This document shows, one piece after another, positions 1 to 34,421 of a stretch of DNA of 64,000 nucleotides. Within the stretch, counting starts at the first letter, position 1; every line of letters starts with the position of its first letter. Origin of the DNA: Acidobacteriota bacterium (GTDB lineage Bacteria; Acidobacteriota; Aminicenantia; JBFLYD01). Location of the stretch: positions 162 through 64,161 of the forward strand of contig JBFLYD010000057.1 of NCBI GenBank assembly GCA_040756905.1, given 5' to 3'. The notes beneath the pieces are model-generated. The model was not told the DNA's origin. It searched no databases and saw only the letters and a list, made by a program, of their open reading frames with translations. A program made the translations under genes and the position numbers.

Positions 1-85
1 TATCTCATATTTTCTCTTCCGAGATAGAGGAATGATACTCCTTTGGTTTTTTCTTATCCAATGAAATTGAAAAATTTAGCTGACT

Positions 86-2779: not shown

Positions 2780-3094
2780 GCCATCTTTAGTGGTATAATT
2801 CCTTATATGAAGTCCCTGGGCTAAAATAATATTTTCTAAGACTAAAATTGAAAAAAGGAGGGAATATTTTTTATCATTCTTTTTAATATGGAATCACCTC
2901 AACTCTTCATTTATAATATAATAATTAAAACATAAATTTTCAATATGTAGACTTATTTTCCTTTAATTTAATCTTACTAATTGGTCTTTTTAGCATTTGA
3001 CATCAATTTCTTCCTGTGATATAAACAAAAGATTGATACAGAGCGAGAATCAAAAATATCCACGTCCAAAAAAGAAGACTTTCTATCTAAGGGC

Positions 3095-3119
3095 GTAAAC
3101 CTAATTTTTTAAGGTTTGC
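3095..3119. promoter_or_regulatory. BirA operator-like inverted repeat (GTAAACC-N11-GGTTTGC) just upstream of the bioB start and overlapping its RBS region
   Basis: Imperfect palindrome gtaaacc taattttttaa ggtttgc at 3095-3119, ending 4 nt before the bioB ATG. It resembles the TGTAAACC/GGTTTACA half-sites of bio operators. Confidence 0.3.
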
Positions 3120-3123
3120 AATT

Positions 3124-5230: not shown

Positions 5231-5327
5231 ACGCTCATGAGTCAGAGGCTCGTAAAGAAGCATGAAAATATTATTCCTCCTCCCTGCATCTCAAATAAAA
5301 GAGTGAGAGGGTAAGGGTATTTGCGGA

Positions 5328-7423: not shown

Positions 7424-7551
7424 TCTTCAGAGAAAGAACCAGAGTAATAGTTCTATAATCAATTTTCTTCTGGGGCACCATATATCTTTTCCACTAATCA
7501 AGCATATAGTCTATTGCATTCAATTTTCCTTTCTTTTGTGTTGTTACTTTT

Positions 7552-19123: not shown

Positions 19124-20518
19124 ATGTCTTATAAAAAATCCAAACTAAAAGGAATTGTTCTTCTTCAGGTATTGGCAGTAATAATCATTCTATTGATTGG
19201 TATAGCAATTTTTCTTCCTTTAATCGTAAAATCAATCGAGAAAAGGGAAACTCTTAAAACAGAGGAGAAATTAGAGATAATAAAAGAGGCAATCGTAGGA
19301 AAAGAGGAATTGATGGGTTCTAATCTTAGAACCTCTTATGGTTTTGTTGGAGATTTAGGAATTCTTCCAGCAACTCTAAATGAGTTAATGGTTCAGGGTT
19401 CATATCCATCCTGGACAATTGATGCAACAACAAAAGTTGAATTCGGCTGGAGAGGACCTTATTTGAATACAATTCAGCATAATGGTAACTATGTTGCTTT
19501 TCTGGATACATGGGGAAATCTAATTCAATATGAAAATGGAACTGGAGCTGTTTTAAAAGTTTTAAGAAGCTATGGCCCTGACGGACAATCAGGTACCACA
19601 GATGATATCACTCTTAACATAGAAGAAGATGAAGTCAGAGGTTATGTAAAAGGAACTATTAAAAACGGTGCGGGAGTTCCAAGAATGATTGACCAGATAG
19701 ACATATACTACCCAAATGGAACATCTACCTTGCAAAAATTAACAGTTTACCCTGATTTTGGAGATTACAGCACTGAAACTGATACTTGCTCTCCACCATG
19801 CCCTGTAAAAATCCCTATTGGCAAAAGAAAAATTATAACTGATATAGACAACCAACCCCCTCAAAATTTAGATTATTATTTAGGCCCTGGGCAGAGAGTT
19901 GGGCAGTATGCGAAACTTCCTCCAATTCCTCAAATTCCTCCTGGAGCATGGGCATGTGATTTTTATTTGCCTGTGAATGGTGGTCCTTACATGAACTGGA
20001 ACCTGAGATGTGGAGTACCTGGCGTCCCCGGATATTTAATTTACATAGAAAAATCAAGAAAACATCAGAAATTCCACTGTCCTGAAAAAGGAGATGGAAA
20101 AAATATGTGGGATAAAGTTATAATAACCATCCAGAATGTGTTCAATTTCACGGTCAAATTAAAAGCATTTTCCTTCTATTCAAACAGTCCTAATCCTTTA
20201 TATCTTGAATATGCATTCTTTGGAAAAAAGAAAGGGTTTCCGACTGATTTTGTCGGATGGGACTATATGGTTGTTAACGGTGGGGTTAGAGCTGCAGAAA
20301 AACAGAGAATAAATATATATGCAATAGATGCTCCTAACTATACTCCCTACACAGTTGAGATAGAACCTTGCGAAGATATTGAATTCAGTTTTCTTGGTTT
20401 TAACTACAGCCAAACAGGTCCGGAATACTGTATCGATGTAAGATGTATTGTTTTTACAATTGCTTTTTCAGATGGCTCTACCATTGAAATTCCTGTTGAC
20501 CCAGGGGATTGCAAATAA
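19124..20518 (+). CDS. Pseudopilin-like protein with a degenerate prepilin signal and a large Cys-rich C-terminal domain, paralog 3
   Basis: Leader MSYKKSKLKG followed by IVLLQV (Q instead of E at +5). Central region paralogous to gene 2 (DTWGNLIQY, SYGPDGQSGTTDD). C-terminal ~250 aa has about 10 Cys (CSPPCPVKIP, WACDF, HCPEKGDG, DPGDCK). Confidence 0.55.
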   Translation: MSYKKSKLKGIVLLQVLAVIIILLIGIAIFLPLIVKSIEKRETLKTEEKLEIIKEAIVGKEELMGSNLRTSYGFVGDLGILPATLNELMVQGSYPSWTIDATTKVEFGWRGPYLNTIQHNGNYVAFLDTWGNLIQYENGTGAVLKVLRSYGPDGQSGTTDDITLNIEEDEVRGYVKGTIKNGAGVPRMIDQIDIYYPNGTSTLQKLTVYPDFGDYSTETDTCSPPCPVKIPIGKRKIITDIDNQPPQNLDYYLGPGQRVGQYAKLPPIPQIPPGAWACDFYLPVNGGPYMNWNLRCGVPGVPGYLIYIEKSRKHQKFHCPEKGDGKNMWDKVIITIQNVFNFTVKLKAFSFYSNSPNPLYLEYAFFGKKKGFPTDFVGWDYMVVNGGVRAAEKQRINIYAIDAPNYTPYTVEIEPCEDIEFSFLGFNYSQTGPEYCIDVRCIVFTIAFSDGSTIEIPVDPGDCK

Positions 20519-20649
20519 AGTAGGTTTCTTGGCCACTCCTCCTATCTCAGAAATACATTAAATTCCCCCCTCCTAATCAAAACTTTAGATGATTACTGCA
20601 AATCAAGTTAATTGAAAAAAGAAAAGGATTAGATTAAAATTTTTCATCT

Positions 20650-21255
20650 ATGAAAAAAGATGCTGAAAAAAATCAAAGACCTTCGAAGGATAGATATTAT
20701 TTAAATATTGCAAAAGAAGTTTCTCGAAGGTCAACATGCCTTAAAGTTTTAATCGGAGCAATAATTGTAAGGGATGACCAGATCATTGCAACCGGATATG
20801 TGGGAGCACCAAGAAAGACAAAAAGCTCTTTAGAACACGGATTCTGCCTCAGGCAGATGCTTGGTATTCCTTCAGGTGCTCAGTATGAACTATGCAGGTC
20901 TGTCCATGCAGAACAGAATGCCATAATAAATGCTGCAAGAGCAGGCGTTTCCCTTCTTAATGGAGATATGTTTATCTATGGAGAAAAAAGAGATTCCTCT
21001 ATTTCTCAATCCTTGGAAAATGAAAAAGAGGTTACAGGGAATGTAAAATTGCTGAATGCCTATCCCTGTTTTATCTGTAAAAAAATGATAATAAATTCAG
21101 GATTGAAAAGAGTCGTCTGCTCGACAGAAGATGGAAAATTCAGAATATTTTCAGTCGATAAATGGGTTAAAGAATGGCAGATAACAGATATAATAGAGGA
21201 TAAATATCAGTATGGAGAATTGCTGCATCAATTGAATAAACTTAAACAAAAATGA
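20650..21255 (+). CDS. dCMP/cytidine deaminase zinc-binding family protein
   Basis: HAEQNAI and PCFICKK zinc ligand motifs, with ~52 residues between them (longer than typical bacterial ComEB-type spacing). Confidence 0.7.
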   Translation: MKKDAEKNQRPSKDRYYLNIAKEVSRRSTCLKVLIGAIIVRDDQIIATGYVGAPRKTKSSLEHGFCLRQMLGIPSGAQYELCRSVHAEQNAIINAARAGVSLLNGDMFIYGEKRDSSISQSLENEKEVTGNVKLLNAYPCFICKKMIINSGLKRVVCSTEDGKFRIFSVDKWVKEWQITDIIEDKYQYGELLHQLNKLKQK

Positions 21256-21818
21256 AAATCGGAGTAACCGGTCCGATTGCCTCTGGAAAAGGAGAGGTTG
21301 TTAAGTTCTTCAGGAAAAATAATTTCAAATACATTTCTCTTTCAGACATGGTCAGAGAGGAAGCAAAAAAAAGAAACATTCCAGTTACAAGAGAAAACCT
21401 TCAGAACATAGGAAATAGCCTGAGAAAAGAATTTGGAGCAGGTGTTTTAGGAATGAAAGTAAGAGAGATAATTGAAAGCTTCCCTGAAAAAAACTGGATT
21501 ATCGATGGAATAAGAAACCCTGCTGAAATAGAAGAATTGAAAAAAATGAAGGGTTTCTATCTTATCGGAATTATCGCACCCCTTAACATTTTGATAGAAA
21601 GAATATTGAAAAGAGAAAGAGAAGATGACCCGAAAAAGAAAGAGGAAATTATAGAAAGAATCAGACAGGACATAGGTGTTAATGAGCCCGAAGATGGCCA
21701 GCAGGTTGGCAAATGCATTAAGATGGCAAACTTTACAATCATTAACGAAGGCTCGTTATTAGATTTACAAGAAAAATTAAAGAGAATCTATTCCACAATT
21801 TTAAAAAAATCTATTTAA
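21252..21818 (+). CDS. P-loop NMP/nucleoside-kinase-like protein with an atypical Walker A (GPIASGKGE)
   Basis: MKIGVTGPIASGKGEV P-loop, adenylate-kinase-superfamily-like size. Its ATG overlaps the deaminase TGA (ATGA), suggesting translational coupling. Exact substrate unknown. Confidence 0.4.
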   Translation: MKIGVTGPIASGKGEVVKFFRKNNFKYISLSDMVREEAKKRNIPVTRENLQNIGNSLRKEFGAGVLGMKVREIIESFPEKNWIIDGIRNPAEIEELKKMKGFYLIGIIAPLNILIERILKREREDDPKKKEEIIERIRQDIGVNEPEDGQQVGKCIKMANFTIINEGSLLDLQEKLKRIYSTILKKSI

Positions 21819-21892
21819 TAAATACTTTATCCTTATATAATATTTTTAAAATTCAAGATAAAGGAATATGGTATTGGATGCAAAGATTGTAG

Positions 21893-22435
21893 TCATTTTC
21901 TCGTGCCATATTGAATATTAAACCAATATATGAACAAATCTTTCTCTAAATTTCTGTAGTTATTAAACCTTTTGGAGACTATTTTCCAAAAATTTTCGTT
22001 ATGTCTTTTTTCTATTAAATGGGTAATTTCGTGAAAGATTACATACTTTATCAAATACTTGGGCAACTTTTGCATCAGTATATTTATAGTCAGATTTCTC
22101 TTGGGACTCAAGCTTGCCCATTTTGTTTTCATATTTCTGAAATAGATATTATTCAATCCAATACTTAATTCTTTGGAGATTTTTTTAACAAATTTCTCAA
22201 TGAGAGTCCTGAATTCCTTTTCACTTCTCTCAATCAATCTTTTATTTGAAGAAAGATTTAAACATTCCCTTATAAATTCATTCTTTTTAAAAATCCAATT
22301 CTTGTGCTTTTCAAGAATAATATCAGGTTTTAATCTCACAGGCAGTACTAAAAGAAGCTCACCTGTTGTAAATTCTAACCTTGGATATTTTATATTCCTG
22401 TAAGAAGTTTTATATCTTATGTTATGCATTTCCAT
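21893..22435 (-). CDS. DUF45 / WLM / SprT-like zinc metallopeptidase (often annotated M48-family) associated with type I R-M loci
   Basis: HEITHLIEKRH HExxH motif near the C-terminus. Start overlaps the hsdR stop. Confidence 0.65.
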   Translation of the reverse strand: MEMHNIRYKTSYRNIKYPRLEFTTGELLLVLPVRLKPDIILEKHKNWIFKKNEFIRECLNLSSNKRLIERSEKEFRTLIEKFVKKISKELSIGLNNIYFRNMKTKWASLSPKRNLTINILMQKLPKYLIKYVIFHEITHLIEKRHNENFWKIVSKRFNNYRNLEKDLFIYWFNIQYGTRK

Positions 22436-25427
22436 AATTTTTCACACTTTCAATGAGTTTCCCATATAGAGTATTCATTTCATCTAAAGAGAGAGCATGC
22501 TTGCTTTTAAGCCTCCTAACAAATCTTCTTATCTCACGCTCTACTTCCTTTCTTGCAGTAGCTTGATTAAACCAGCCTAAAAACATACGCTCTTGAAGAT
22601 TTTGTGAGAGTTCCATCACTTCTTTTGTAAGCTGTTCTCCATTTTCCAGTTTCTGCTCAAGTTGAAGGAGCATTGCATATTCAAGATTGGAAAATCCTAA
22701 AGACTTTTGTCTCTCTGTAAGAGTATTGATATCCTTAAGTATTCTTACACCTTCAGTATAAATCTTTGCGTAATCTCTAGTCTTTTCTTTCCAGAGCTCA
22801 AGAAGCCTTTCGACTTTTTCAATCAATGACTCATAGATGGGATTTCTGTGTCTTTCTACAAGAACTAACTTGTTAAGGGTAAAGAGGATATTCGCTGCTT
22901 TCTCCTCTTTTCCTTTAATTTTCTCTTCTAGCTTCTCGAGATACTCTTTATCAAAAGCTATAGTTGGAAGTTCTCGCTCAAGTGTATCTATTTCAGTAGC
23001 CCTATGAACAAATCTTATAGTTTTATCGTAGTATTTTTGAATATAGCCTTCATAAACAGATTTTTGGATGACTACTTTCATGTAATATGCGTAAATTGCA
23101 GAGAGCCATTTATAGGAATCAAAATGTTCCAATTTGATCTCATTGGGCCCAAGAAGTTCGAAAGTTTTACTTAATTTTCTGTACTTTTCAAGAAATTCTT
23201 TCCCTTTCTCTTCATCTAAAGTAAGAACTTCTATAGTTTTCAATAAGGTTTCCCTTTTGTAATCAATCGATACTTCTTTAAGAATTTCCAAAATCTCTCT
23301 AATAAGAGTTACAAATTCCTCTATAACATTGTCCTGACTAAAGAGAGCACCTTTGATATCTTCTTCGCTGTACATTTCAAGGGCTCTCTTAAATTCTTTT
23401 AAAATACCCACATAATCAATTACAATTCCAGACTCTTTTAAATCATTAAAAGGTCTGTTTGTTCTTGCTATTGCTTGAAGAAGCCTGTGTTCCTTGAGGA
23501 GCTTATCAAGATACATTACCTGGAGAGAAGGGCAGTCAAAACCAGCAAGCAGCATTTCAGTAACAATCAATATGCTGGGTAAGGGTTCTTCTTTGAATTT
23601 TTCGATAATTTCTTTTCTGATATCCCCTATATCTTTGCCTCCGTATTGTGCCCTGAGTTCAGCGACTGCGTTCTTTAATAACAGTTCATCTTCTCTATCA
23701 AACGTTATGACTACTTTGCTATACTCTTCAGGCAAATGTTTATTCAATTCCAGTCTGTAAAGTTCACATGCCTTTCTGCTTCCAGCTACCACCATAGCCT
23801 TAAACTTTCCATCAATATTCTCTTTGAAATGTTGAGCTATATCTTCGGCAATTACTTTAATCCTATTGGGATTTTCAAGAAAGAGTTTTATGGCATTAAG
23901 TCTTTTCTTTATCCCTTCCTCAACATCTTCGCGGATCTCCTCTGGAAGTTCCTCAAGTTCTGTTTCCAAAAATGCTTCCAGCATCTCCTTTTTTAAATGG
24001 ACCTCTTTTTCAAGTCTTGGCTGATAGACGATTTTCACTGTAAAACCGTCTTTGATAGAATCCGTTATGAAATATCTGTCAAGATAAGGTTCTTCTGTCG
24101 GATAGCTGAATTCTAAATAGGTGTCTCTTCCTCTCTTTGAAATGGGAGTGCCTGTGAGGGCAAAAAAGAAGGCGTTCTTGAGTATTGATTTCATCTGAGC
24201 TGCAAGAGTTCCATATTGAGTCCTATGCCCTTCATCTATAAAGGCAATGACATTCTTCCTGTTCATTATTGTTTCTTTGTGTTTTGATATTTCCTCTAAT
24301 TCTTTCTCTACCTCTTTGAGTTCTTCATATCTGAATTTATGAATAAGCACTATAAAAACTCCTCTCTTGCCTCTGTAGTCCTCATGTTTGAGGATTTCTT
24401 TGAGTTCCCACACTGAACTAATAATTTCAGGTTTTACAATATCTAGAGAGTTGAATTCACTATAAAGCTGATCTTCCAGCTCAATCCTGTCAACAATGAA
24501 AAATATTGTGGGATTTTCAAGCTCTTTCATGTAGTAAAGCTTATGAGCTGCAAATATCATGGTAAGGGTTTTTCCGCTTCCCTGCCAGTGCCAGATAAGT
24601 CCTCTATTCTTTTCCTCTTGACCCGTGAGATTCGCCATGACTCTATTAACGATTTTATTGGCAGCGCTGTATTGCATATATCTGGTTATCGCCTTAGAGG
24701 CATTTCCAAATTCTATCCTGAAAAAGAGGAAATGTTTGAGTATATCGAGTAAAGATTTTCTTGATAGAATTTCGATGACAGAGTCAATGGAATCTTTTCC
24801 TTCCTCTTTCCATTCGTGCGTTTTCACTTCATCCTGCCACGGAACAATAGGAAAATACTTAGCCCTACTTTCTGCAGCTACTCCAATTTGGACATACTTA
24901 TAAAGCTCTGGAACGATTTTTTCGTAATCTTTTACCTGTTTATAAGCGTTGTACCAGCTTTCGGATATACTTGCAGGGTTCTTACATTCTATATTTACAA
25001 GAGGGATGCCGTTAACATAGAGCATAAGATCTATCCGAATTCTTTCTCTGCCGTCATAATTGATCTGCGTTGTTACAATGAACTCATTATTCTCGATGTC
25101 CTTGAAATCGAATAATTGAATGTACTTTACCACTCTCTCTTTTTCAAACTTCACAGGAATGCCAAATTTATAGAAATTCAAAATTTTCTTTGCTCCTTCA
25201 ATGCCTGAGCTTGTTAAAGTTAGTTCATTCAGAGCTTTATTTATCTCTTCATCGCCGATGTTAGCTTCTTTGTTTATTCTTTTTAATGCTCTTACGAGAT
25301 TCGGCACAAGGAGAGGCTCTTTATAGTTTTCTCTCATAAGATTATCAGATGGAACAAATTCCCACTCCTTTTCTATAAGTCTGCGGAGGAGATACTCTTC
25401 TACAATAGATTTTTCAGTAAATTTCAT
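22422..25427 (-). CDS. hsdR: Type I restriction enzyme R subunit (SF2 helicase plus endonuclease)
   Basis: 1001 aa. WQGSGKTLTM Walker A, DEGHR-type DEAH box (IDEGHRTQ), N-terminal nuclease region. Operon with hsdS and hsdM. Confidence 0.9.
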   Translation of the reverse strand: MKFTEKSIVEEYLLRRLIEKEWEFVPSDNLMRENYKEPLLVPNLVRALKRINKEANIGDEEINKALNELTLTSSGIEGAKKILNFYKFGIPVKFEKERVVKYIQLFDFKDIENNEFIVTTQINYDGRERIRIDLMLYVNGIPLVNIECKNPASISESWYNAYKQVKDYEKIVPELYKYVQIGVAAESRAKYFPIVPWQDEVKTHEWKEEGKDSIDSVIEILSRKSLLDILKHFLFFRIEFGNASKAITRYMQYSAANKIVNRVMANLTGQEEKNRGLIWHWQGSGKTLTMIFAAHKLYYMKELENPTIFFIVDRIELEDQLYSEFNSLDIVKPEIISSVWELKEILKHEDYRGKRGVFIVLIHKFRYEELKEVEKELEEISKHKETIMNRKNVIAFIDEGHRTQYGTLAAQMKSILKNAFFFALTGTPISKRGRDTYLEFSYPTEEPYLDRYFITDSIKDGFTVKIVYQPRLEKEVHLKKEMLEAFLETELEELPEEIREDVEEGIKKRLNAIKLFLENPNRIKVIAEDIAQHFKENIDGKFKAMVVAGSRKACELYRLELNKHLPEEYSKVVITFDREDELLLKNAVAELRAQYGGKDIGDIRKEIIEKFKEEPLPSILIVTEMLLAGFDCPSLQVMYLDKLLKEHRLLQAIARTNRPFNDLKESGIVIDYVGILKEFKRALEMYSEEDIKGALFSQDNVIEEFVTLIREILEILKEVSIDYKRETLLKTIEVLTLDEEKGKEFLEKYRKLSKTFELLGPNEIKLEHFDSYKWLSAIYAYYMKVVIQKSVYEGYIQKYYDKTIRFVHRATEIDTLERELPTIAFDKEYLEKLEEKIKGKEEKAANILFTLNKLVLVERHRNPIYESLIEKVERLLELWKEKTRDYAKIYTEGVRILKDINTLTERQKSLGFSNLEYAMLLQLEQKLENGEQLTKEVMELSQNLQERMFLGWFNQATARKEVEREIRRFVRRLKSKHALSLDEMNTLYGKLIESVKNYGNA

Positions 25428-25428
25428 C

Positions 25429-26559
25429 TCAGGTTTCCAATTTCACTCTCTTTCTCCCTGTCAGTAAATCATTCATCAATCCCTTCTTAATTCTCTCAAA
25501 CTTTCCCTTTTTCTCTTTCAGCATCTCCAGCCTTCTATCCCCTGTGCTCAGGATTTCAGCGATTTTTTTCTGTTCAGGGAGAGGAGGAAGAGGGAGTTTC
25601 AGCACATGTACCAATTCTCTTTTAAGTCCAGGGACTACATCAGCCAAACTTAGTTTTGGCAAATTTAAATGATTTAATACAAAAAATAACCACTTCAATT
25701 CAATATCTTTTATTAAGGTATTTATATAATAAGTTGTATCTATAGGCCAAAAATCTGAGTTTATCCAAGAGACAGCTCCTATTGTCCCCTTTCTGCCTAT
25801 AACTATACCTGGCCCCTTAACTAAAGCTTCTTCATGGTATCCCACTATTCCATTAGAACCTACCACTGGATACATTCCAGCTTTTCTTTCTCTTTCAGAT
25901 AATCCTTTGCCATACTCTAACGTTAGTATTTTCCCCAACCTCACCACCTCCCACTCCTTCGGTATCCTTCCAATCTCTGTTTCTTTAAACTCTTTATAAC
26001 CTATGCCCTTGGTCAGTAGCTCATGCATCAACCCCTTTTTTAGCCTTTCGGTCTTCTCAATAGTTTCATCTACCTTCTCAATAGCCTCATCAACCGTTGA
26101 AAGAATCTTAGCAATTTTTTTCTGTTCAGGGAGAGGAGGAAGAGGGAGTTTCAGCACATGTACCAATTCTCTTTTAAGTCCAGGGACTACATCAGCCAAA
26201 CTTAGTTTTGGCAAATTTAAATGATTTAATACAAAAAATAACCACTTCAATTCAATATCTTTTATTAAGGTATTTATATAATAAGTTGTATCTATAGGCC
26301 AAAAATCTGAGTTTATCCAAGAGACAGCTCCTATTGTCCCCTTTCTGCCTATAACTATACCTGGCCCCTTAACTAAAGCTTCTTCATGGTATCCCACTAT
26401 TCCATTAGAACCTACCACTGGATACATTCCAGCTTTTCTTTCTCTTTCAGATAATCCTTTGCCATACTCTAACGTTAATATTTTCCCCAACCTCACCACC
26501 TCCCACTCCTTCGGTATCTCGCCAATTTCGGTTTGTTTAAATTTCTTTTGTTTAGTCAT
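25429..26559 (-). CDS. hsdS: Type I R-M specificity subunit with two nearly identical target recognition domains
   Basis: Two ~150-aa TRDs of identical sequence (EIG(E/R)IPKEWEVVRLGKILTLEYGKGLSERE...PLPEQKKIA) separated by the conserved central coiled-coil region. Typical HsdS size. Confidence 0.85.
   Translation of the reverse strand: MTKQKKFKQTEIGEIPKEWEVVRLGKILTLEYGKGLSERERKAGMYPVVGSNGIVGYHEEALVKGPGIVIGRKGTIGAVSWINSDFWPIDTTYYINTLIKDIELKWLFFVLNHLNLPKLSLADVVPGLKRELVHVLKLPLPPLPEQKKIAKILSTVDEAIEKVDETIEKTERLKKGLMHELLTKGIGYKEFKETEIGRIPKEWEVVRLGKILTLEYGKGLSERERKAGMYPVVGSNGIVGYHEEALVKGPGIVIGRKGTIGAVSWINSDFWPIDTTYYINTLIKDIELKWLFFVLNHLNLPKLSLADVVPGLKRELVHVLKLPLPPLPEQKKIAEILSTGDRRLEMLKEKKGKFERIKKGLMNDLLTGRKRVKLET
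25563..25985. repeat. Direct repeat copy 1 inside hsdS (TRD-encoding, ~423 bp, near-identical to 26114-26536)
   Basis: Read directly: the sequence from tttttttctgttcagggagaggagg to ccactccttcggtatc recurs with a ~552-nt period and only a few substitutions. Confidence 0.85.
26114..26536. repeat. Direct repeat copy 2 inside hsdS
   Basis: See copy 1. Confidence 0.85.
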
Positions 26560-27551
26560 TTCTTAAATTCCAATATGTCAAAAATACTCAATTGTCCTGC
26601 ATTTGAAATTTCAATTTTTCTGGTTGTAATATTCTCAAATTCCCATCCAGTATTTGGGATAAGCGCTTTAGAAATAGTAAATGCTCTATAATGACTACTA
26701 TTCTTAAATCCACTGCCCCGCTTTCGTTTATCAAGCATCTCTTTTACAGGATATGCAATAATTCCTTTTTTATCTTCTATTGGGTTACCGATCTGAGGAT
26801 TTATATTCTTGATTTTTGCATCTTTAAGGCAGCAATGAATCGCACAACCAAGTAACATATCCGCCAACTGAAGCATATTGGCGTGCTTGTATTCTTCCGA
26901 TCCTTCATTATAATTCCTATGATTAGAATTCAAATGTACTAACTCTGCATCCTTGGGAATTTGCACATATTCCCGAACTTCTCCTGTAAGTCTATCCAGT
27001 ATTCTAAACTCGTTTAATCTTCGATGATGTGGCTGACCATCAGTAATAATTTTTAAGATTTTCACTTTGTGACTATTGTCATAAAGGTAATGAACCGTTC
27101 CCTTTAATAACATTCTAAGCAATGTTTCTCCAAACCTTAATTCTCTTTCATTCCTATCTTTACCACCATAACTTGCAATTTGATCTGGCCTTGGCTTTTC
27201 ATGAAAAATTATACCTAACTTGCAAAAAGTTTTATTCTGCTTTAAATACTTTACACCTATTTGAACTATCTGTTTATCGGCATTATTTCGCTTTGCCCAT
27301 TTCCGTCCAGATATCTCTGAAAAATGGAATTTATGATCTACGCCAAAATCACTTCTTATCTTCTTAATTTCCTCAAATAGAATATTTAAGGGTTCAACTT
27401 GTCTTATCTGTGTGTCAAATAAATCACCTGTCTCTTCAATAATTGTTTTAATCGGTACAAAAAGCAAAGCATGTCCCTTTGATATTTCTGTACCAGCGCT
27501 TTTTGTTTCATCATGATATACTATTACTTCACTTTCAATACTTCTTCTCAT
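26556..27551 (-). CDS. Hypothetical 331-aa protein embedded between hsdM and hsdS, tentatively DUF3800-like
   Basis: N-terminal VIVYHDETKS (acidic motif on a predicted first strand) and C-terminal ANMLQLADMLLG resemble what I recall of DUF3800. Not verifiable here. Overlaps the hsdS start by 4 nt. Confidence 0.3.
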   Translation of the reverse strand: MRRSIESEVIVYHDETKSAGTEISKGHALLFVPIKTIIEETGDLFDTQIRQVEPLNILFEEIKKIRSDFGVDHKFHFSEISGRKWAKRNNADKQIVQIGVKYLKQNKTFCKLGIIFHEKPRPDQIASYGGKDRNERELRFGETLLRMLLKGTVHYLYDNSHKVKILKIITDGQPHHRRLNEFRILDRLTGEVREYVQIPKDAELVHLNSNHRNYNEGSEEYKHANMLQLADMLLGCAIHCCLKDAKIKNINPQIGNPIEDKKGIIAYPVKEMLDKRKRGSGFKNSSHYRAFTISKALIPNTGWEFENITTRKIEISNAGQLSIFDILEFKK

Positions 27552-27576
27552 TTTTCTATTTTGCCTCTCACCACAT

Positions 27577-27870
27577 TTATTTCTTCCCCCCTGCTCTCTT
27601 TATAATATTTCCTTTTTCATCCATGACCCCTATCCCGTTTCCCTTGGTACCATCTAAAGCATTCTGTAGATTCCTTTCGTTTACAGCAATATACCTTGCT
27701 TTTGAGGATCTTTTTACCTGATTTATTCCTTGATATATTCCACTTTTCGTGGTCTCAACTTCAATCACTCTATTGTCTGTAACTATATCAATCCCCTTTT
27801 GCTTTCTATATTCTGTTCCAAACCTTTTTGCCAACTTTTCCCCAATTTGATCGTGTTTATTTTTAGCCAT
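27577..27870 (-). CDS. Small 97-aa hypothetical protein, possible minimal PD-(D/E)xK (Hjc/VRR-NUC-like) fold
   Basis: GIDIVTDNRVIEVETTK resembles a D...E-x-K nuclease core. Weak, by eye only. Confidence 0.2.
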   Translation of the reverse strand: MAKNKHDQIGEKLAKRFGTEYRKQKGIDIVTDNRVIEVETTKSGIYQGINQVKRSSKARYIAVNERNLQNALDGTKGNGIGVMDEKGNIIKRAGGKK

Positions 27871-27967
27871 TATTTAACCTCCTCAAATTAATAATCATCA
27901 ACTTAATCATCAACCTTATCTAAGTTAATAGCCGAGGCTTCTACATTTCCAAGCGGTTTCGTCTCTC

Positions 27968-28504
27968 TCACTCCCTTCCGAACCCGATCATCTTTCTCGG
28001 CTTTTGAGGTGGAGTCATGAGTTGGCGAATGGCATCGAAAATAGCCTTTATCTTTTCCTCTTGCCTTTCTATTTTTCTTTCAAGCTCCGTTAACTTGTGA
28101 GCAAGTTCTTTGTGTGCTGAAAGGATTTCTCTAAGCCTTATAAAGGCCCGCATGATGGCTATATTCACATGAATGGCTCTTTCGCTATGCAATACACTGG
28201 AAAGCATGGCAACACCTTGTTCAGTAAAGGCATAAGGGCGGGCACGTCTTGCTCCTCCCCAACTTGAAATCACAATTTGTGACTTCAAGATTTTATACTC
28301 TTGTTCATTAAGCTGGAACATAAAATCTTCAGGGAATCTCTCGATATTGCGTTTTACTGCCTGGATAAGCACACGAACTTCAACCTCATAGAGTTCCGCA
28401 AGGTGTGTGCTAAGCATAATTTTCTTCCCTCGGATAAAACAAATTTTTCTCTCAATCTGTTCTATTGGAACAATTGCTTGATTAAGCATTTCCAGTTCCA
28501 TCAT
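27968..28504 (-). CDS. ORF6N-domain (KilA-N-like) DNA-binding protein, a common type I R-M passenger
   Basis: N-terminal [45 protein letters not shown] is typical of ORF6N proteins. C-terminal coiled coil. Confidence 0.55.
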
Positions 28505-28686
28505 CCTTGACTTTTTACATAATCTTTAATTTTTTTTATATTTTCTGCCGTCGTAGTTGCCTGCCAATTAACCTTTTTGCATCAAAATATAATAAATTTA
28601 TGCCTCTTAGAAAATGACAACTTAAATGACAACCATTGTCAAACCAGCTCATAATAAGCTCCTCTGTACTTTTCTTTGAACTTTCA

Positions 28687-30231
28687 TCATCTATCTCTTT
28701 CCCCTTTCTTTATTGCAATATATTTTTGAAATCTACTTTTTGGTTTATCCGGAATCGTTCTTTTTAAATAGTCCTTTTCCAATAGAGGATTGAGGATTTT
28801 CTCTATAAAGTGTTTTCTGTCTCTTAAGTTTAGGTGCACCATGATTTCTTTCAGGGATCTCGGAGTTTGGCAATAACTTAGAGTCAGAGCAATTCTATCC
28901 ATTATTTCGACTTGTGGGGTGACTTGTGGGGTGACTTGTGGGGTGACTTGTTCGGTTGGATGACGCAGTGTGAAGGTAAAAGTATCAGATTTTATATCAT
29001 TTGAATAATCTGGAATTGGATATCCTTCTTTTTTCAGGAGCTCAACGGTAGTTCTAATGCCTGTTCCTTTTGTTTCTGCCCATCCGATATCATAAAAAAC
29101 AGCGGCTATTAGAGGGTTGCGCAATTCAGATCCAGGAGAACTAAAGAGAGAAGGATCTTTTAGAGAGTAGCCAGGGTTATAAAATTCCACTCTATCATTA
29201 TAGACTCTTATCTGAGCAGGGCTTGGGTGAAAATAGTTTTGATGCATTAAAAGATTAGTGAGGGCTTCTCTTAAAGCCTTTCTATGGGCATGCTCTTCTG
29301 TGCGAATGAGCTTCTCATCCAATTTAAATGGAATCAAGAAGAAACGATCAAGGATGTCGAGAGCAGAAGACCAGAGAGTTACGAGATTTCCTGTCAAATC
29401 CTGTGAGAGAAAGGGATTCTTTTCTTTTCCCCATTCTGACCCTTTTATCCTGATTATATCCAGGCGCTTTGCTGGAAAATATCGTTTTACAATTCCTTCC
29501 TTACCAAAAAGAAGGATGCCAGCTACGATTAAAGTCCTGCCATCTTGTGCCAGCAGATTGTACGCTTTCAATAATTCGGCATTGTCAAATGTGAGTTCCG
29601 GAGCATCAGGTTTTATGAGCTTACGCAGATTTCTGAAGACAGAAATAGCCTTGATATCAATATCTTCTAATGTAGTACCAATAACAGATTGTGCATCAGG
29701 AGCTCCCATTCGCTCTTGATAATATCTCTGGACATCAGAATCTGTTAATCTTATGTCGGTAGCTCCTATTCGTTTAAAACCTCCTTTAATTGGGCCTAAG
29801 TCTTTTATGTAGATTGGCTTTTGATATCTCGGTGCTTCTTTTACTTCAATCAAAATTATCGGCATACCTTTATCCTCTGTTATCCCCGCTCTTACAACAG
29901 GACAATAATTAAATTTCTGCCCAATGGTGGAGGTAAAGTCATCCAATATCTTTGAAGGATTCTCTACGCCCACAGGGATGTAGTTATTGTCTGCCTTCTC
30001 ATACCCAAGAAGTATCATTCCACCGCCTTCATTTGAAAAAGCTGAAACGGTCTCCCATAAATCCTTAGAAAGTTTCGATTTGCAAAGTTTATACTCAATC
30101 TTTGAACTTTCCCATCTGCTCCTCTCTTCCATTATCTTCATTTTTTGTGGTTCTCCGTTCTCTATCAATTTGACTCTTTTTTCAGCTCCAGACTCAATAG
30201 AATCTTGATTCTCAGATTTTTTCTTCATCAT
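28687..30231 (-). CDS. COG2865-type protein: Schlafen-like AlbA_2 domain plus HATPase_c_4-like domain plus C-terminal wHTH
   Basis: LWETVSAFSNEGGGMILLGYE (AlbA_2 / divergent AAA region). Central ALREALTNLLMHQNY. C-terminal HTH-like tail. A (VTPQ)x3 tandem repeat lies in the linker. Confidence 0.65.
   Translation of the reverse strand: MMKKKSENQDSIESGAEKRVKLIENGEPQKMKIMEERSRWESSKIEYKLCKSKLSKDLWETVSAFSNEGGGMILLGYEKADNNYIPVGVENPSKILDDFTSTIGQKFNYCPVVRAGITEDKGMPIILIEVKEAPRYQKPIYIKDLGPIKGGFKRIGATDIRLTDSDVQRYYQERMGAPDAQSVIGTTLEDIDIKAISVFRNLRKLIKPDAPELTFDNAELLKAYNLLAQDGRTLIVAGILLFGKEGIVKRYFPAKRLDIIRIKGSEWGKEKNPFLSQDLTGNLVTLWSSALDILDRFFLIPFKLDEKLIRTEEHAHRKALREALTNLLMHQNYFHPSPAQIRVYNDRVEFYNPGYSLKDPSLFSSPGSELRNPLIAAVFYDIGWAETKGTGIRTTVELLKKEGYPIPDYSNDIKSDTFTFTLRHPTEQVTPQVTPQVTPQVEIMDRIALTLSYCQTPRSLKEIMVHLNLRDRKHFIEKILNPLLEKDYLKRTIPDKPKSRFQKYIAIKKGERDR
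28909..28950. repeat. 12-nt tandem repeat (GACTTGTGGGGT x3.5) encoding the VTPQVTPQVTPQV linker
   Basis: Read directly from the sequence. Confidence 0.85.
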
Positions 30232-31993
30232 TAGATACCTTTAGTTCCTTAAGATAATTCTCTATCTTTTCGCTTACTTCTGTTAGCTCCTTTTCAAGTA
30301 TGCGAAGCTCTTCCCACTCTTTTGCCGCATCAATCTCCTCTGTCTCTTCCTCAGGAAAAACATACAGCGTAACATTCAGGTTATAGTCATTTTCTTTTAT
30401 CTTTTCATGCTCTACAATCCTTGCAAATCCATCTATATCCTTAAACTCTCTGTATGCAATAACAATTTTATTTATGTGCTCATCTCCTAATCTGTTGAGT
30501 TTTCTGACCTCTGGATGTTGTTCATATTCTCTGCTTGCATTTATAAATAAAATCTTGTCTTTCCTTTCCTCTGGTTTATTCTTATTGAGAATGAGGATGG
30601 CTCCTGGTGCACCTGTATTGTAGAAAAGTTTTTCAGGGAGGAGAATGACTGCTTCCATCAGGTTTTCGCTAATAATAGCTGTTCTCACCGCTTTTTCTTT
30701 TCCACCCCTAAAGAGACAACCATTATCTATGACAATACCTACTCTACCTTTTTCGGTGTTTGCAGAGGATAGCATGTGTTGAATCCAAGCCCAGTCTGCG
30801 GATTGATTTGGAGAGAATCCGTACTTAAATCTTTCTCTCCAGAACTCACCCTTTTTCAAAATATCCTCACCATAGCCATCTTGATTCCATGGGGGATTGG
30901 CTATGACGACATCGAACGTTTTGGCACGTTCAGCATCTTTAAATTTGGGATAAAGCAGAGTATCGCCAAGCACAAGTTGGGCATTCCTTATATCATGGAT
31001 GTAAAGATTCATCTTCGCTAAGGCGAGAGTCTTGTGATTGGCTTCCTGTCCGGACAAGAAAAGTTTTTCAGCCTCACTTTTTCCCTTTTCATTTTCAATA
31101 TGTTGATAGGAGGCTATTAACATGCCTCCTGAACCACAAGCAGGATCATAAACACTTTCTTTTGGCTGGGGATCAAGAATTTCTACGAGGAGTTTTATAA
31201 CCTCTCTTGGCGTGTAAACTTCTCCTTCTTTTGCCTTTTGGGGAGCGAAATATTTTAAAATCCATTCGTAGGCATCACCAAGTATGTCAGGAGAGACATG
31301 ATGAAGTGGCTTTGCGCTGAAGAGCTCGACAAGTTGCCTTAATATCTCTACATTCTCTCTGTTTGTGGTGAACTGGACAAAATCAACATTCTCAAAGACA
31401 TCTTTTAACTCAGGATTTTTCTCTGAGAGAAGCTTCATTGCCTTGGAAAAGTTTTCTGGTAATCGCGCAGGTTCTTTTCTTATGTTTTCCCAAAGAAGTT
31501 CATCCGAAATATCGAAATCATGATATATGGAGTTTTTTGCCTCTACTTTTGCCTCTTCCTCACTAAGACCATCTGCAAGGGCTTCCTTATAGGCCGCCTC
31601 GTATTCTATTTCCCATTTGTCGCTTATCCTTTTATAGAAAAGAAGGAAAAGTATAAATGTATAATCGACCCTTGTTCTGATAAGATCCGCAGCTTTTTTT
31701 AGTAGATTATCAAGATCGTCTCTTGTTAGAGTATCATTCCTTATCGTAAATAATTCCGATAATATTTTTTCTCGGCTTATCAATGTGTAGATACGCTTTC
31801 TTGCATCTTTAGGGTCAAGTTCAACTTTGAGCCAATCTCTTTTTCGTAACTCTGAAAGAATAACATTGACCTGCTCCTCTGAGTCCTGCAACTTCTCCTT
31901 GAGAATCTTTTCTGCTTCTTCAAAACGGAATAAAGAATCCTTGAAGGCTTCCACGAGCATCCCATATCTTTTTTCGAGCCATTTAGGTATCAT
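30212..31993 (-). CDS. hsdM: Type I R-M N6-adenine DNA methyltransferase subunit
   Basis: DPACGSGGML SAM motif, VVIANPPWN catalytic motif, N-terminal HsdM_N-like region. Confidence 0.9.
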   Translation of the reverse strand: MIPKWLEKRYGMLVEAFKDSLFRFEEAEKILKEKLQDSEEQVNVILSELRKRDWLKVELDPKDARKRIYTLISREKILSELFTIRNDTLTRDDLDNLLKKAADLIRTRVDYTFILFLLFYKRISDKWEIEYEAAYKEALADGLSEEEAKVEAKNSIYHDFDISDELLWENIRKEPARLPENFSKAMKLLSEKNPELKDVFENVDFVQFTTNRENVEILRQLVELFSAKPLHHVSPDILGDAYEWILKYFAPQKAKEGEVYTPREVIKLLVEILDPQPKESVYDPACGSGGMLIASYQHIENEKGKSEAEKLFLSGQEANHKTLALAKMNLYIHDIRNAQLVLGDTLLYPKFKDAERAKTFDVVIANPPWNQDGYGEDILKKGEFWRERFKYGFSPNQSADWAWIQHMLSSANTEKGRVGIVIDNGCLFRGGKEKAVRTAIISENLMEAVILLPEKLFYNTGAPGAILILNKNKPEERKDKILFINASREYEQHPEVRKLNRLGDEHINKIVIAYREFKDIDGFARIVEHEKIKENDYNLNVTLYVFPEEETEEIDAAKEWEELRILEKELTEVSEKIENYLKELKVSNDEEKI

Positions 31994-32354
31994 AAACTAT
32001 TTCCATATAAATAAATTAGATAAGTTTTTAATTTCATACTTATATAATAGTATAAAAAAAATCCTTTGTCAAATTTTTCTATTTAAAATATACCCTTTCT
32101 TTTAAAAGATAATCCCTCGATGTGATTAGGCAAGATTTATATGGCAATGTAGAGGTGCTATTTTTTACGAAAGGCCCTCATGTTTAATGGTGGAAGCGTC
32201 TAAAAATAAATCTATATAAGAATTTCTAATTAGAATTTATAACATTTCAGTTACTTTTTGTGTGATTTAACTAATACATCTTAAGATACTTTAAATGACT
32301 TAAATTTTGGAATGGAATTTGTTTTGCATTTATGATAACATTTGAAATTTAAAA

Positions 32355-33773
32355 ATGGAAAGCTTTGGCTGGCTTTCAATAATTCCTCCCTTAGTAGCAA
32401 TTGCTTTAGCTCTGATCACAAGACACATTTATATCTCCCTTTTCCTTGGAATCTACTCTGGAGAGCTTATAATTTCCAAAGGAAGAATATTTTATTCTTT
32501 CTACCTCACATTAGAAGAAATCCTAAATGTCTTCTCAAAAAAAGAAAATGTTCAGGTAATCTTTTTCTGTATGCTCGTGGGAAGTTTAATCGCCCTTGCC
32601 CAGAGATCCGGTGGAATAGAGGGGTTGATAAATTATGTTACTTTAAAGGGTATAATCAAGACAAAGAGAAAAGCTCAGGCTCTGGCAGGGATAATAGGAG
32701 TTCTTGTATTCATTGAATCAAGCATCACCTCCCTCATAGTCGGGTCAATCTTTAGACCAATTTTTGATAAGTTAAAAATTTCCCGGGAGAAGCTTGCCTA
32801 CATTTGCGATTCAACCTCTGCTCCTGTCTGTATGATGATACCTCTAAATGGATGGGGAGCTTTTGTTATCGGCCTTCTTTTAGCTCATAACATAAAAGAC
32901 CCGGTTCATGTGCTTATTAAATCCTTGCCCTTAAATTTTTACTCAATCTTGGCAATTTTAATGGTTTTTATAATCGCTTTTTTAAACAAAGATTTTGGGC
33001 CGATGAAGAAGGCAGAGGAAAGAGTAGAAAAAGAGGGAAAGATTTTCAGAGATGGATCTAACCCTCTTATCGCCTATGATATAATTAATTTAAAAACTAA
33101 AGAAGGAGTTAAGCCAAATCCATTTAATTTAATTATTCCTGTTTTTGTGATGATCTCTATTATACCCTGTGCTCTTTACATTTCCGGAAATGGAAATATA
33201 TTCAAAGGCTCAGGGTCCACTTCAGTTTTATGGTCGGTTTTGATTTCGATTCTAATTGCTTCAGTCATCTATTTAATCAAAAAGAATCTAAACATCCATG
33301 ATTTAACTGATTTAATCATTAAGGGAATGTCAGGGCTTCTCCCCGTTACTATTCTTGTTGTATTTGCATATGGCATCGGGAGTATCTCAAGGGAGCTCCA
33401 TACGGGTGAATTTGTCGCTTCTCAATTTTCAAGAGCACTCCCTCCTTTTCTTCTTCCTGCAATTCTTTTTGCTGCAACATGCTTTATAGCTTTTGCTACC
33501 GGAACTTCCTGGGGTTCATTTGCGATAATGGTACCGATAGGAATCTCTGCTGCAATAAATTTAAATTTAAGCATTCCTCTTGTTTTATCTGCAATATTGG
33601 GAGGGGGAGTCTTTGGAGATCATGCTTCTCCTCTTTCAGACACTACAATAATTTCTGCAATGTCTTCTGCTTCTGACCTCATGGATCATGTCACCACCCA
33701 GCTTCCCTATGCTCTGTTTTCTGCAGGAGTAAGTTTATTTCTTTACATATTAATAGGAATTCTTTTCGTTTAG
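32355..33773 (+). CDS. Na+/H+ antiporter NhaC-family membrane transporter
   Basis: 472 aa polytopic membrane protein with the NhaC-family pattern of two repeated hydrophobic halves around a hydrophilic loop. Confidence 0.65.
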   Translation: MESFGWLSIIPPLVAIALALITRHIYISLFLGIYSGELIISKGRIFYSFYLTLEEILNVFSKKENVQVIFFCMLVGSLIALAQRSGGIEGLINYVTLKGIIKTKRKAQALAGIIGVLVFIESSITSLIVGSIFRPIFDKLKISREKLAYICDSTSAPVCMMIPLNGWGAFVIGLLLAHNIKDPVHVLIKSLPLNFYSILAILMVFIIAFLNKDFGPMKKAEERVEKEGKIFRDGSNPLIAYDIINLKTKEGVKPNPFNLIIPVFVMISIIPCALYISGNGNIFKGSGSTSVLWSVLISILIASVIYLIKKNLNIHDLTDLIIKGMSGLLPVTILVVFAYGIGSISRELHTGEFVASQFSRALPPFLLPAILFAATCFIAFATGTSWGSFAIMVPIGISAAINLNLSIPLVLSAILGGGVFGDHASPLSDTTIISAMSSASDLMDHVTTQLPYALFSAGVSLFLYILIGILFV

Positions 33774-34421
33774 GAGTAGTGTTTTAGTAATTCTAAAATG
33801 TTTTTTTGCTATTCTATCGAGTACTTCAGTCCCTTTTTCCTCTATCAATTTCTTTGCAATTTCTTTTACTTCCTGGGATGAACCTTTTTTAAGCTCAACT
33901 CCAATCTCTGAAGAAATTTTCTCCATTTCATTTAGAAATTGGGCTCGAGCAAGAATTGAGGCTGCTGCCACAGCTAAATCTTCCTCAGCCTTTTCCTTCT
34001 GTTCAATTATTATCTGTTTGCCCTTTTTCATAAGAGCTCTCTCTATGAACTTTTCATCTCCAAACTTATCAGAAATAGCTCTATCACAATAAGTTAATTG
34101 AAGTATATTCTCGATAACTCTTGCATGGCCCCAGGCAAGAATTCTATTCAAATTTTTCATCCTTCCCCATAATTTATTATATTTCTCCGGACTTATCGTA
34201 ACCAGGGAATTTATGAATTCCTTCTTAATTATTTTAGAAAGTTCCTTTATTTTATTATCTGAGAGTTTTTTACTATCTTTTACTCCCAGCTCTTTCAAAC
34301 GATTTATCTGGTTCTTATTTACAGAAACCCCTGCTATTACTAAAGGTCCAAAATAATCTCCTTTTCCTGATTCATCAGTCCCTATCCAGCACGTCCGCCC
34401 GTTCATAAAAAGATGCAACAC
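33750..34421 (-). CDS. Type 2 ribonuclease H with an RNase HIII-like catalytic motif, but short (223 aa, no N-terminal substrate-binding domain)
   Basis: GTDESGKGDYFGPLVIAGV (HIII-type DESGKGDYFGP) and GVKDSKKLS motifs. Confidence 0.7.
   Translation of the reverse strand: MLHLFMNGRTCWIGTDESGKGDYFGPLVIAGVSVNKNQINRLKELGVKDSKKLSDNKIKELSKIIKKEFINSLVTISPEKYNKLWGRMKNLNRILAWGHARVIENILQLTYCDRAISDKFGDEKFIERALMKKGKQIIIEQKEKAEEDLAVAAASILARAQFLNEMEKISSEIGVELKKGSSQEVKEIAKKLIEEKGTEVLDRIAKKHFRITKTLLLNEKNSY

Follow-up and report, generated by a model that had tools for sequence, protein, structure and literature searches.

A 64,000-nucleotide stretch of DNA from an Acidobacteriota bacterium (Aminicenantia; contig JBFLYD010000057.1), called the window in what follows, carries a complete type I restriction-modification (R-M) operon in which four passenger genes lie between hsdM and hsdS. 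Eight co-oriented open reading frames (ORFs) run along the minus strand from 31993 down to 21893 in the order hsdM, a COG2865-type gene, an ORF6N gene, the genes for a 97-amino-acid (aa) and a 331-aa protein (p97 and p331), hsdS, hsdR and a YgjP/DUF45 gene. This order, taken from the ORF list with Pfam and PADLOC, confirms the complete type I system of the original prediction, which had been made by a first reading of the letters alone. The hallmarks of the type are all present, namely an HsdM with a methylase domain and HsdM_N, an HsdS with two target-recognition domains and an HsdR that combines a nuclease domain with an SF2 translocase. The locus exemplifies a phenomenon already known, the embedding of defence cassettes in R-M operons, and carries two uncharacterised components.

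The hsdM-hsdS junction and its passengers

The first reading had regarded the gap between hsdM and hsdS as a hotspot for accessory genes, and this is borne out for the R-M lineage of the window by a survey of 80 metagenome loci whose HsdM is 65-79% identical to that of the window (related loci are labelled L, and protein family members P, each with a number). Both hsdM and hsdS are contained in 46 of the 80 loci, with a gap of 35 to 8679 base pairs (bp) between them; passengers occupy at least 489 bp of it in 43 of the 46 (inserts of 489-8679 bp), and abutting genes occur in 3 only. The passenger that most often comes first after hsdM is a 345-aa Fic/DOC protein whose C-terminal domain is a winged helix; it occurs in 29 loci (for example L045:11766-12803; range L041-L118). 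COG2865-type passengers occur in at least ten loci, with 61-76% identical copies standing directly after hsdM in L017, L021, L044, L072, L090 and L115. The C-terminal winged helix is common to the COG2865 and Fic proteins, and the Fic/DOC passenger appears to alternate with COG2865-type proteins having this same domain. Similarity of COG2865 to the C-terminus of RecG in HHpred has been noted by others (PMC7641849).

Further passengers of the hotspot are AbiJ_NTD4 (seven loci, often with a 510-aa partner), ORF6N (five), p97 (five) and YhcG/DUF1016 (two), and, more rarely, a KAP NTPase, an SDH/ClpP-like protease, DUF3644 and many singletons. They are combined in many ways, among them hsdM-COG2865-p97-p331 (L072), hsdM-ORF6N-p97-p331-hsdS-hsdR-YgjP (L073, L127), hsdM-p97-p331 (L016) and hsdM-COG2865-p331-hsdS (L121). 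The passengers are recurrent and not random, and the set in the window is a mosaic drawn from a shared pool, there being no conserved four-gene module. The recurrence of COG2865 and ORF6N proteins at this position, claimed by the original prediction, is thus seen in related loci, and the proposed survey of gaps in relatives upholds recurrence; the fixed set of four passengers that the prediction implied gives way to many different combinations.

The ORF6N passenger matches three PADLOC models of the defence candidate PDC-S05 over its full length (including PDLC04856 at 4.3e-57, residues 6-175 of 178, and PDLC04869 at 1e-55) and a PHROG anti-repressor at 4e-28. It stands directly before p97 in seven loci, among them L011, L015, L032, L055, L073 and L127. 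In E. coli, one PDC-S05 representative lowered the plating of phages T7 and T5 by a factor of about 1000 and protected against T4 as well (bioRxiv 10.1101/2024.09.26.614923).

The features of the operon are collected below. The first reading had also stated that stops and starts abut or overlap throughout, and had based a single transcription unit on this. The stated basis holds only in part, there being gaps of 182 bp between the COG2865 and ORF6N genes, 97 bp between the ORF6N and p97 genes and 25 bp between the p97 and p331 genes. Elsewhere the junctions are tight: hsdM and the COG2865 ORF overlap by 20 nucleotides (nt) as the ORFs are defined (homologue alignments suggest that the true COG2865 start could lie later, at M31 or M34), p331 and hsdS overlap by 4 nt, hsdS and hsdR are spaced by 1 nt, and hsdR and the YgjP-like gene overlap. 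One transcript for the whole operon is nevertheless plausible, because a scan of the region found no terminator-like site on the minus strand inside the operon and the strongest promoter-like match lies just upstream of hsdM; internal promoters are possible in the 182-bp and 97-bp gaps. The total number of promoter-like sites in the 11-kb region is not above the shuffled expectation.

Table 1. Features of the R-M operon in the window
Feature	Position	Strand	Basis or remark
hsdM, type I methyltransferase subunit, 593 aa	30212-31993	-	Pfam N6_Mtase 8.6e-115, HsdM_N 2.4e-15; PADLOC MTase_I 7e-105
Passenger 1, COG2865-type, 514 aa by ORF	28687-30231	-	Pfam SLFN_AlbA_2, HATPase_c_4 and C-terminal winged helix (Fic-like_C)
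Passenger 2, ORF6N/KilA-N-like with C-terminal coiled coil, 178 aa	27968-28504	-	Pfam ORF6N PF10543 4.9e-33
Passenger 3, p97, small basic protein of an unnamed family, 97 aa	27577-27870	-	PD-(D/E)xK-like topology in AlphaFold2 model
Passenger 4, p331, predicted divergent DUF3800, 331 aa	26556-27551	-	Pfam, motifs, RNase H2-like fold of model
hsdS, specificity subunit, 376 aa	25429-26559	-	Pfam Methylase_S, two stretches (two target-recognition domains)
hsdR, restriction/translocase subunit, 1001 aa	22422-25427	-	Pfam HSDR_N 6.9e-34, SWI2_SNF2 1.4e-57, ResIII, T1R_D3-like; PADLOC REase_I 9e-112
YgjP-like (DUF45) metallopeptidase, conserved last gene of the R-M lineage	21893-22435	-	Pfam YgjP-like 6.2e-25
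Best sigma-70-like promoter match, TTGACA-17-TATTAT, upstream of hsdM	32044-32072	-	Consensus scan, 11 of 12 positions; pattern match only
182-bp intergenic gap COG2865/ORF6N	28505-28686	-	Two weak promoter-like matches and a tandem 10-nt repeat
Tandem 10-nt direct repeat (two copies) upstream of ORF6N	28612-28633	-	Candidate operator or chance
Tandem 12-nt direct repeat GGTTGATGATTA AGTTGATGATTA (coding strand), lying 21-44 nt ahead of the p97 start	27892-27915	-	Possible operator; two short copies could be chance

The operon is flanked by housekeeping genes, a dCMP deaminase and a small kinase on one side and a Na+/H+ antiporter, RNase HII and acetyl-CoA hydrolase on the other, and can therefore be regarded as an insert of about 10 kb. 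The genuine RNase HII gene (33750-34421; RNase_HII in Pfam at 1.2e-37) is 1.8 kb away, beyond the antiporter gene; it is a housekeeping neighbour outside the operon and has the same fold as the DUF3800-like passenger. The YgjP-like gene follows hsdR in about 30 related loci.

Two observations concern the hsdS gene and its surroundings. Its halves are near-identical in DNA: a 405-nt block recurs 552 nt further on with a single mismatch, which points to a recent duplication or gene conversion. Both target-recognition domains are therefore the same, and a symmetric (palindromic) recognition site is predicted. Further, MNT/HEPN pairs (NTP_transf_2 with HEPN/HepT) are inserted between hsdS and hsdR in L001:10301-10959 and L122:7514-8073, so that this R-M lineage has a second cassette site, at the hsdS-hsdR junction.

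The two unrecognised passengers, p331 and p97

Both ORFs are real genes, as their homologues and confident models attest. The exact proteins are on record from one contig of an Acidobacteriota metagenome-assembled genome only. The first reading had seen in p331 a possible RNase-H-like or DUF3800-like N-terminal motif, and this is supported from several sides. With 145 homologues at E<=1e-3, p331 itself matches Pfam DUF3800 (PF12686) at 18.7 bits (E=0.003), below the gathering cut-off of 21; a match at E<=0.01 is found in 42 of 59 family members (best 5.1e-5), and five relatives have a precomputed PF12686 match. In the alignment of the 59, D14, D171, Q228 and D231 (QxxD) are invariant and E15 is kept in at least 90%, so that the protein has the N-terminal DE and C-terminal QxxD motifs by which DUF3800 is described (PMC7736814). 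The AlphaFold2 model (mean pLDDT 88.7) has as its top Foldseek match in the PDB the RNase HII of M. jannaschii (1eke_B, E=1.4e-4, probability 1.0), followed by many RNase H2/H3 entries; TM-scores of 0.3-0.4 mean that the match covers the core only. The same template (1EKE) has been reported for the DUF3800 partner of type VII retrons (PMC7736814). On account of the motifs, the PF12686 matches of its relatives and the fold of the model, p331 is filed as a predicted divergent member of the DUF3800 clade with an RNase H2-like fold, and D14, E15, D171 and D231, judging from their position and conservation, would form an RNase H-type carboxylate site.

No usable match to p331 was obtained in PADLOC, NCBIfam or PHROGs, in keeping with the claim that it resembles no named defence protein; a profile search of PDB sequences with the family alignment gave nothing at E<=10, and tblastn against PLSDB plasmids and INPHARED phages found none. 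As to structured RNAs, DUF3800-associated or other, Rfam gave no match in 20000-34000 of the window at E<=5, and no RNA family was found at gathering score in eight related loci.

Relatives of p331 are found in the hsdM-hsdS gaps of this R-M lineage (L016/L001, L072, L073, L109, L120, L121, L122 and L127/L128), beside a type ISP enzyme (L002-L004), inside an operon of PglZ, p331, DUF1156-methylase, DUF8076 and helicase genes with overlapping junctions (L005, L006 and L123), and beside an SbcCD-like pair with an SLFN_AlbA_2 gene (L007-L009); the context of L010 is uninformative. From these contexts it follows that this DUF3800 clade is itself tied to methylase-based systems. An upstream p97 gene is limited to the closest p331 relatives, and relatives at 41-65% identity stand without it in L002-L010, L109 and L120-L123. 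The PglZ operon deserves mention in its own right: in L005:6717-13813, L006:1274-8389 and L123:1600-10722 the order of an 805-814-aa protein, PglZ, DUF3800-like protein, DUF1156 N6_N4 methylase, DUF8076 and SF2 helicase is conserved, and the whole resembles a methylase system of the BREX/DISARM kind to which the DUF3800 gene would belong as an integral part.

The other protein, p97, belongs to an unnamed family that fits no named one. Close homologues number 109 at E<=1e-2 (55-83% identity), and a profile search of 1.8 billion representatives extends the family to 179 clusters at 50% identity, nearly all of them stand-alone proteins of 90-130 aa. No usable match was found in Pfam, NCBIfam, PADLOC or PHROGs, which again agrees with the statement that no named defence protein is resembled, and the family-alignment profile search of PDB sequences returned nothing at E<=10. 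The protein has a pI of 10.0 with a conserved basic KRARRKK tail, and its conserved residues are H6 D7, D28, E37, Q51, Y60, G81-V-M83, G87 and K91.

The minimal PD-(D/E)xK core suspected in p97 by the original prediction is plausible but unproven. The AlphaFold2 model (mean pLDDT 92.5) runs alpha-beta-beta-beta-alpha-beta, followed by a helix and a C-terminal hairpin, and by DSSP its elements (helix 5-16, short strands near 21 and at 28-29, strand 34-39, helix 42-52, strand 58-63, helix 65-74) follow the order of such a core. At least 90% of the broad family retain D28, most members also retain E37 (consensus IEVE), and a canonical PD..VEVK is present in the distant members P0281 and P0335. 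The topology, the D...E motif and these distant sequences fit the suggestion. Against it stand position 39, which is E in the clade of the window and K, A, G or V elsewhere, the catalytic lysine of (D/E)xK not being conserved, and the Foldseek search of the PDB, which gave nothing significant, noise only. The backing from elsewhere is weak: the best BFVD matches are MmcB-like repair proteins at a borderline E=5e-3 (probability 0.99), and 5 of 53 members have faint matches to UPF0102 in Pfam. Also among the weak BFVD matches are a KilA-N-domain protein and several nuclease-type proteins, and it is a possibility that the ORF6N protein and p97 might form a split DNA-binding-plus-nuclease pair.

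It is the p97 gene, and not the p331 gene, that has the unusual distribution, a feature missed by the first reading: the methylase is constant and the downstream effector variable. A genome-wide scan with one genome per species located p97 in 25 loci (within L011-L039), from Desulfobacteraceae, Omnitrophota, Syntrophaceae, Planctomycetia, Aminicenantia, WOR-3, Elusimicrobia, Parcubacteria, Saccharibacteria, Berkelbacteria, Aenigmatarchaeota and Pacearchaeota, so far uncultured organisms only. Thirteen of the loci among L011-L039 have it in type I hsdM-hsdS gaps, and the copies at least 66% identical to that of the window sit there in the same R-M lineage (L011-L017, L019, L021, L032, L034). 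Outside type I gaps, a methylase gene adjoins p97 in 10 of 11 informative loci. It is divergent from a fusion of LexA_DNA_bind, Peptidase_S24 and methylase in L018, L023, L024, L029, L035 and L036-39, the LexA-S24 part of these fusions being 45-60% identical while the methylase class differs among them; it lies beside a stand-alone LexA-like gene and a C5 methylase in L025, beside N6_N4 methylases in L022 and L033, and beside an Eco57I-type methylase in L020. The sole informative exception is L028, with p97 next to a CD-NTase. As p97 was found neither in PLSDB plasmids and INPHARED phages (tblastn) nor in IMG/VR (pattern scan), it looks like a cellular gene.

Directly downstream of p97, in the same orientation and at a distance of 0-110 nt, often with an ATGA overlap, stands a gene that changes from locus to locus. 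This gene is DUF3800 in the window, L016, L072, L073 and L127, Abi_C in L011 and L034, DUF3644 in L014, L090 and, by reading, L013, SIR2_2 in L017, a KAP NTPase in L055, a 1263-aa ATPase-like protein in L015, DUF6680 in L019, AbiJ_NTD4 in L021, GIY-YIG in L020, ClpP in L024 and AAA_15 with OLD-TOPRIM in L025. In L022 the second ORF downstream is S24 with RE_endonuc, and in L031 p97 is followed by a membrane-protein gene and then a ThsB-TIR gene. Altogether p97 is paired with about 17 partner families other than p331. By reading, AGGAG-like sequences lie in the purine-rich codons of its KRARRKK tail, spaced as the ribosome-binding site of the next gene. Natural fusions also exist (L124:1941-4531, L125, L126; P0343). 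One is a 578-aa p97-PRTase-CE protein, known on six contigs that stem from at least three samples, with a Peptidase_M78 (ImmA/IrrE-type) gene after it; the other, of 674 aa, joins HTH_3, Peptidase_M78 and p97 and forms a cluster of two sequences. No paper describing the methylase linkage and swappable downstream effectors of p97 was found in the open-access literature.

The single-protein fusions of LexA-S24 with a methylase (N6_N4 or N6_Mtase; L018:8067-9710, L023:2259-3851, L024:120-1556, L029:8422-9876, L036:2562-4427) are an observation apart. That of L036 is the methylase of an MvaI/BcnI-type R-M system with its own C protein. The architecture, for which no paper was found in the open-access literature, suggests damage-responsive control of methylation. 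In L018, L023 and L029, CTTTCG(A/G)TTT direct repeats lie about 60-100 nt upstream of p97 and overlap a good -35/-10 pair; they are probably the operator of the LexA-like repressor.

What the passengers may do

The explanation favoured here, to which an even chance may be given, is a mobile R-M system with swappable back-up cassettes. The 10-kb operon (21893-31993) would be a horizontally mobile type I system with the hsdM-hsdS junction as its cassette hotspot, and the four passengers would be separate cassettes from a shared pool, co-expressed with the R-M genes and most likely serving as a second-line, abortive-infection-type or regulatory back-up to restriction, as PrrC and DarTG do elsewhere. 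In this scheme p331 could be an effector with metal-dependent nuclease activity directed at RNA/DNA hybrids or structured nucleic acid, and p97 a small basic nucleic-acid-binding protein or nuclease of the PD-(D/E)xK fold that serves, at the level of nucleic acid, to trigger, to process or to gate expression. Its translation would be coupled to that of whichever effector stands behind it, and it would not be the cognate protein partner of any one of them; cassettes could be exchanged by recombination within or next to the conserved 3' end of p97, whose tail codons may supply the Shine-Dalgarno sequence of the next gene. Copies of p97 that are closest neighbours in the tree precede unrelated partners (DUF3644, a 285-aa unknown, Abi_C, DUF3800), and close copies before unrelated folds make a specific antitoxin or adaptor role unlikely, action on nucleic acid or independence fitting better; the tree is poorly resolved, and co-diversification with the partners is not rigorously readable from it. 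No shared N-terminal docking motif was found in the partners by eye or by all-against-all BLAST.

The LexA-S24 and ImmA/IrrE-type M78 neighbours suggest that p97 operons may be induced by DNA-damage or stress signals. That p97 is in fact functionally coupled to the effector behind it is rather unlikely, and is rated well below the explanation as a whole. Bolder still, and to be judged unlikely, is the proposal that p97 could be the core of an unrecognised methylase-linked defence architecture of bacteria, CPR (candidate phyla radiation) and DPANN archaea, in which a minimal nuclease-fold protein would sense or process a nucleic-acid signal raised by infection or DNA damage and license a plugged-in effector, as a universal 'socket' for DUF3800, SIR2, TIR, HEPN, OLD, KAP, ClpP and PRTase.

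Several points weigh against the favoured explanation or parts of it. The tested PDC-S05 gene is described with a Virulence_RhuM domain and may not be equivalent to the 178-aa ORF6N and coiled-coil protein of the window. The methylase adjacency of p97 is a matter of raw counts, taken without a formal background model. No conserved operator or RNA element that would explain control in cis was found. Within the R-M lineage p97 is present in 5 of the 80 related loci only, and AbiJ_NTD4 (seven loci) and p331 (many) also occur without it. Moreover, p97 is truncated, frameshifted or interrupted beside an intact downstream ORF in L032:1635-1790, L034:5164-5500, L055:2546-2809 and L090:3250-3504, and L019:10001-10291 has a possible in-frame stop in p97 with the downstream ORF intact. 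Degraded copies beside intact effectors, together with effectors lacking p97, mean that the effectors are not strictly dependent on it.

Certain roles can be set aside altogether. Its presence in so few relatives speaks against a constant role of p97 in the R-M lineage; a strict p97-p331 module is rejected, each occurring without the other; a cognate restriction endonuclease is rejected, p97 being near-identical beside three methylase classes and L036 already having its MvaI/BcnI enzyme; and homology to RptR is rejected, RptR having 79 aa and being all-helical.

The best-surviving alternative, unlikely as it is, makes p97 an autonomous R-M-associated nuclease or DNA-binding protein (nicking, repair-type or a cassette-exchange factor) and the variable gene behind it an uncoupled product of a recombination hotspot. 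The constant class of neighbour is indeed the DNA methylase gene and no single effector; the effectors that occur without p97 and the MmcB-like repair proteins among its BFVD matches point the same way, and in L036-L039 no effector follows p97, a GIY-YIG gene preceding it. Such autonomy is hard to reconcile, however, with the very short or overlapping downstream junctions in about 20 loci of unrelated context or with the p97-PRTase-CE fusion on six contigs, and a shared enzymatic partnership with three unrelated methylase classes is hard to picture.

Less probable, and to be considered quite unlikely, is a controller that delays or gates a toxic downstream gene relative to the methylase on entry into a new host. 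In PvuII-type control the methylase gene faces a C-R operon across divergent promoters, and the arrangement of a methylase divergent from p97 and its overlapping, toxic follower mirrors it. The operator-like CTTTCG(A/G)TTT repeats between LexA-methylase and p97 genes and the tandem 12-nt repeat upstream of p97 in the window would fit as well, and RptR provides the precedent of a small R-M-proximal repressor (PMC12255303). However, the model of p97 is mixed alpha/beta with no helix-turn-helix match in Pfam, its conserved acidic residues suggest catalysis and not operator binding, the repeats of the LexA loci are explained more simply as sites of the LexA-like repressor itself, no upstream motif is common across type I contexts, and L036 already has a canonical helix-turn-helix C protein.

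A type II-like toxin-antitoxin (addiction) pair, with p97 neutralising the p331 nuclease by binding and the two stabilising the operon, must be rated very unlikely. A small basic gene does stand directly upstream of a larger putative nuclease, spaced by 25 nt in the window and with stop/start overlap in L072, L073 and L127, and the pair occurs on at least six contigs (window, L016, L072, L073, L127, L128). Yet the p97 copies closest in the tree precede unrelated folds, and others in the type I clade precede SIR2 and the 1263-aa ATPase-like protein, as would hardly be expected of a specific antitoxin; the p331 relatives at 41-65% identity do without p97, the degraded p97 copies of L032, L034, L055 and L090 stand beside intact effectors, and obligate co-occurrence and co-variation of p97 and p331 are not observed. 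That the passengers are mere hitch-hikers without a defence role, placed by a tolerance of insertions between hsdM and hsdS, would suit the winged-helix COG2865 and Fic proteins as possible ordinary regulators, the p97 pseudogenes and the lack of a conserved set, but is scarcely credible given a pool dominated by abortive-infection and defence families (AbiJ, Abi_C, SIR2, OLD, KAP, HEPN/MNT, PDC-S05) and p97 and p331 genes that are strongly conserved across phyla with motifs intact and reappear beside other methylase-based systems.

Returning to the mobile R-M system with back-up cassettes, two leads emerge from the locus: a DUF3800 clade tied to methylase-based systems, and an unnamed 97-residue family with an unusually clean signature, a methylase gene as its neighbour and an effector behind it that changes from locus to locus. 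Functional coupling of p97 to these effectors, should it exist, would define a defence design of modular kind and yield a series of candidate effectors; failing that, the locus remains the record of a well-populated cassette hotspot from which defence genes could be mined.

Comparison with known systems

The PanA-type antitoxin domain is the known case of one small conserved gene paired with many unrelated toxic genes. In its many unrelated downstream genes p97 is similar, and it differs in being nearly identical across partners and not diversifying. With C proteins it shares the position of a small gene upstream of, or overlapping, a toxic gene and divergent from a methylase, whereas p97 is not a helix-turn-helix protein. 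Like RptR, it is a small protein strongly tied to type I R-M; RptR is helical with 79 aa, whereas p97 is not all-helical and is encoded inside the operon and not upstream. The minimal PD-(D/E)xK proteins (YraN/UPF0102, MmcB-like, Hjc-type) resemble p97 in size class, core topology, the Asp at the second strand and the Glu in the third, and the difference lies in its G-x-G-V-M-D ... G-x-I-x-K C-terminal hairpin and basic tail, with no significant sequence or PDB match.

DUF3800 proteins are known as the type VII retron partner (PMC7736814), as the TPR-DUF3800 protein of Cas12a2/a3 loci and as Csx32 of the Cas13 CASK operon (PMC10910872, PMC13594972); they also occur next to eleven structured RNA motifs, and have no known function. 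With these p331 shares the DE and QxxD motifs, the RNase H2-like fold predicted by its model and the location in a defence locus. In contrast to them, it stands alone at 331 aa, has an additional region at its C-terminus and lacks TPR and reverse-transcriptase parts, and it is linked to methylase systems and not to CRISPR or retrons, with no DUF3800-associated RNA nearby.

The closest parallels to the operon as a whole are PrrC, embedded in EcoprrI (PMC12707154), RloC, and DarTG2, embedded in type I R-M as part of the RptR-R-M-DarTG-M48 (RRDM) island (PMC12255303). None of the four passengers has the ABC-ATPase and anticodon-nuclease domains of PrrC and RloC (Pfam, PADLOC, NCBIfam) or the domains of DarT and DarG, and the passengers of the window sit at the hsdM-hsdS junction, unlike PrrC, RloC and DarTG2 at hsdS-hsdR. 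What is shared is the co-oriented placement of accessory genes inside a complete type I operon, a terminal metallopeptidase gene (YgjP-like in the window, M48-family in RRDM) and, likely, the logic of a back-up. Genes embedded in R-M loci have repeatedly proved to be new immune functions, as with PrrC, DarTG, BrxU and the 'embedded candidates' of PADLOC.

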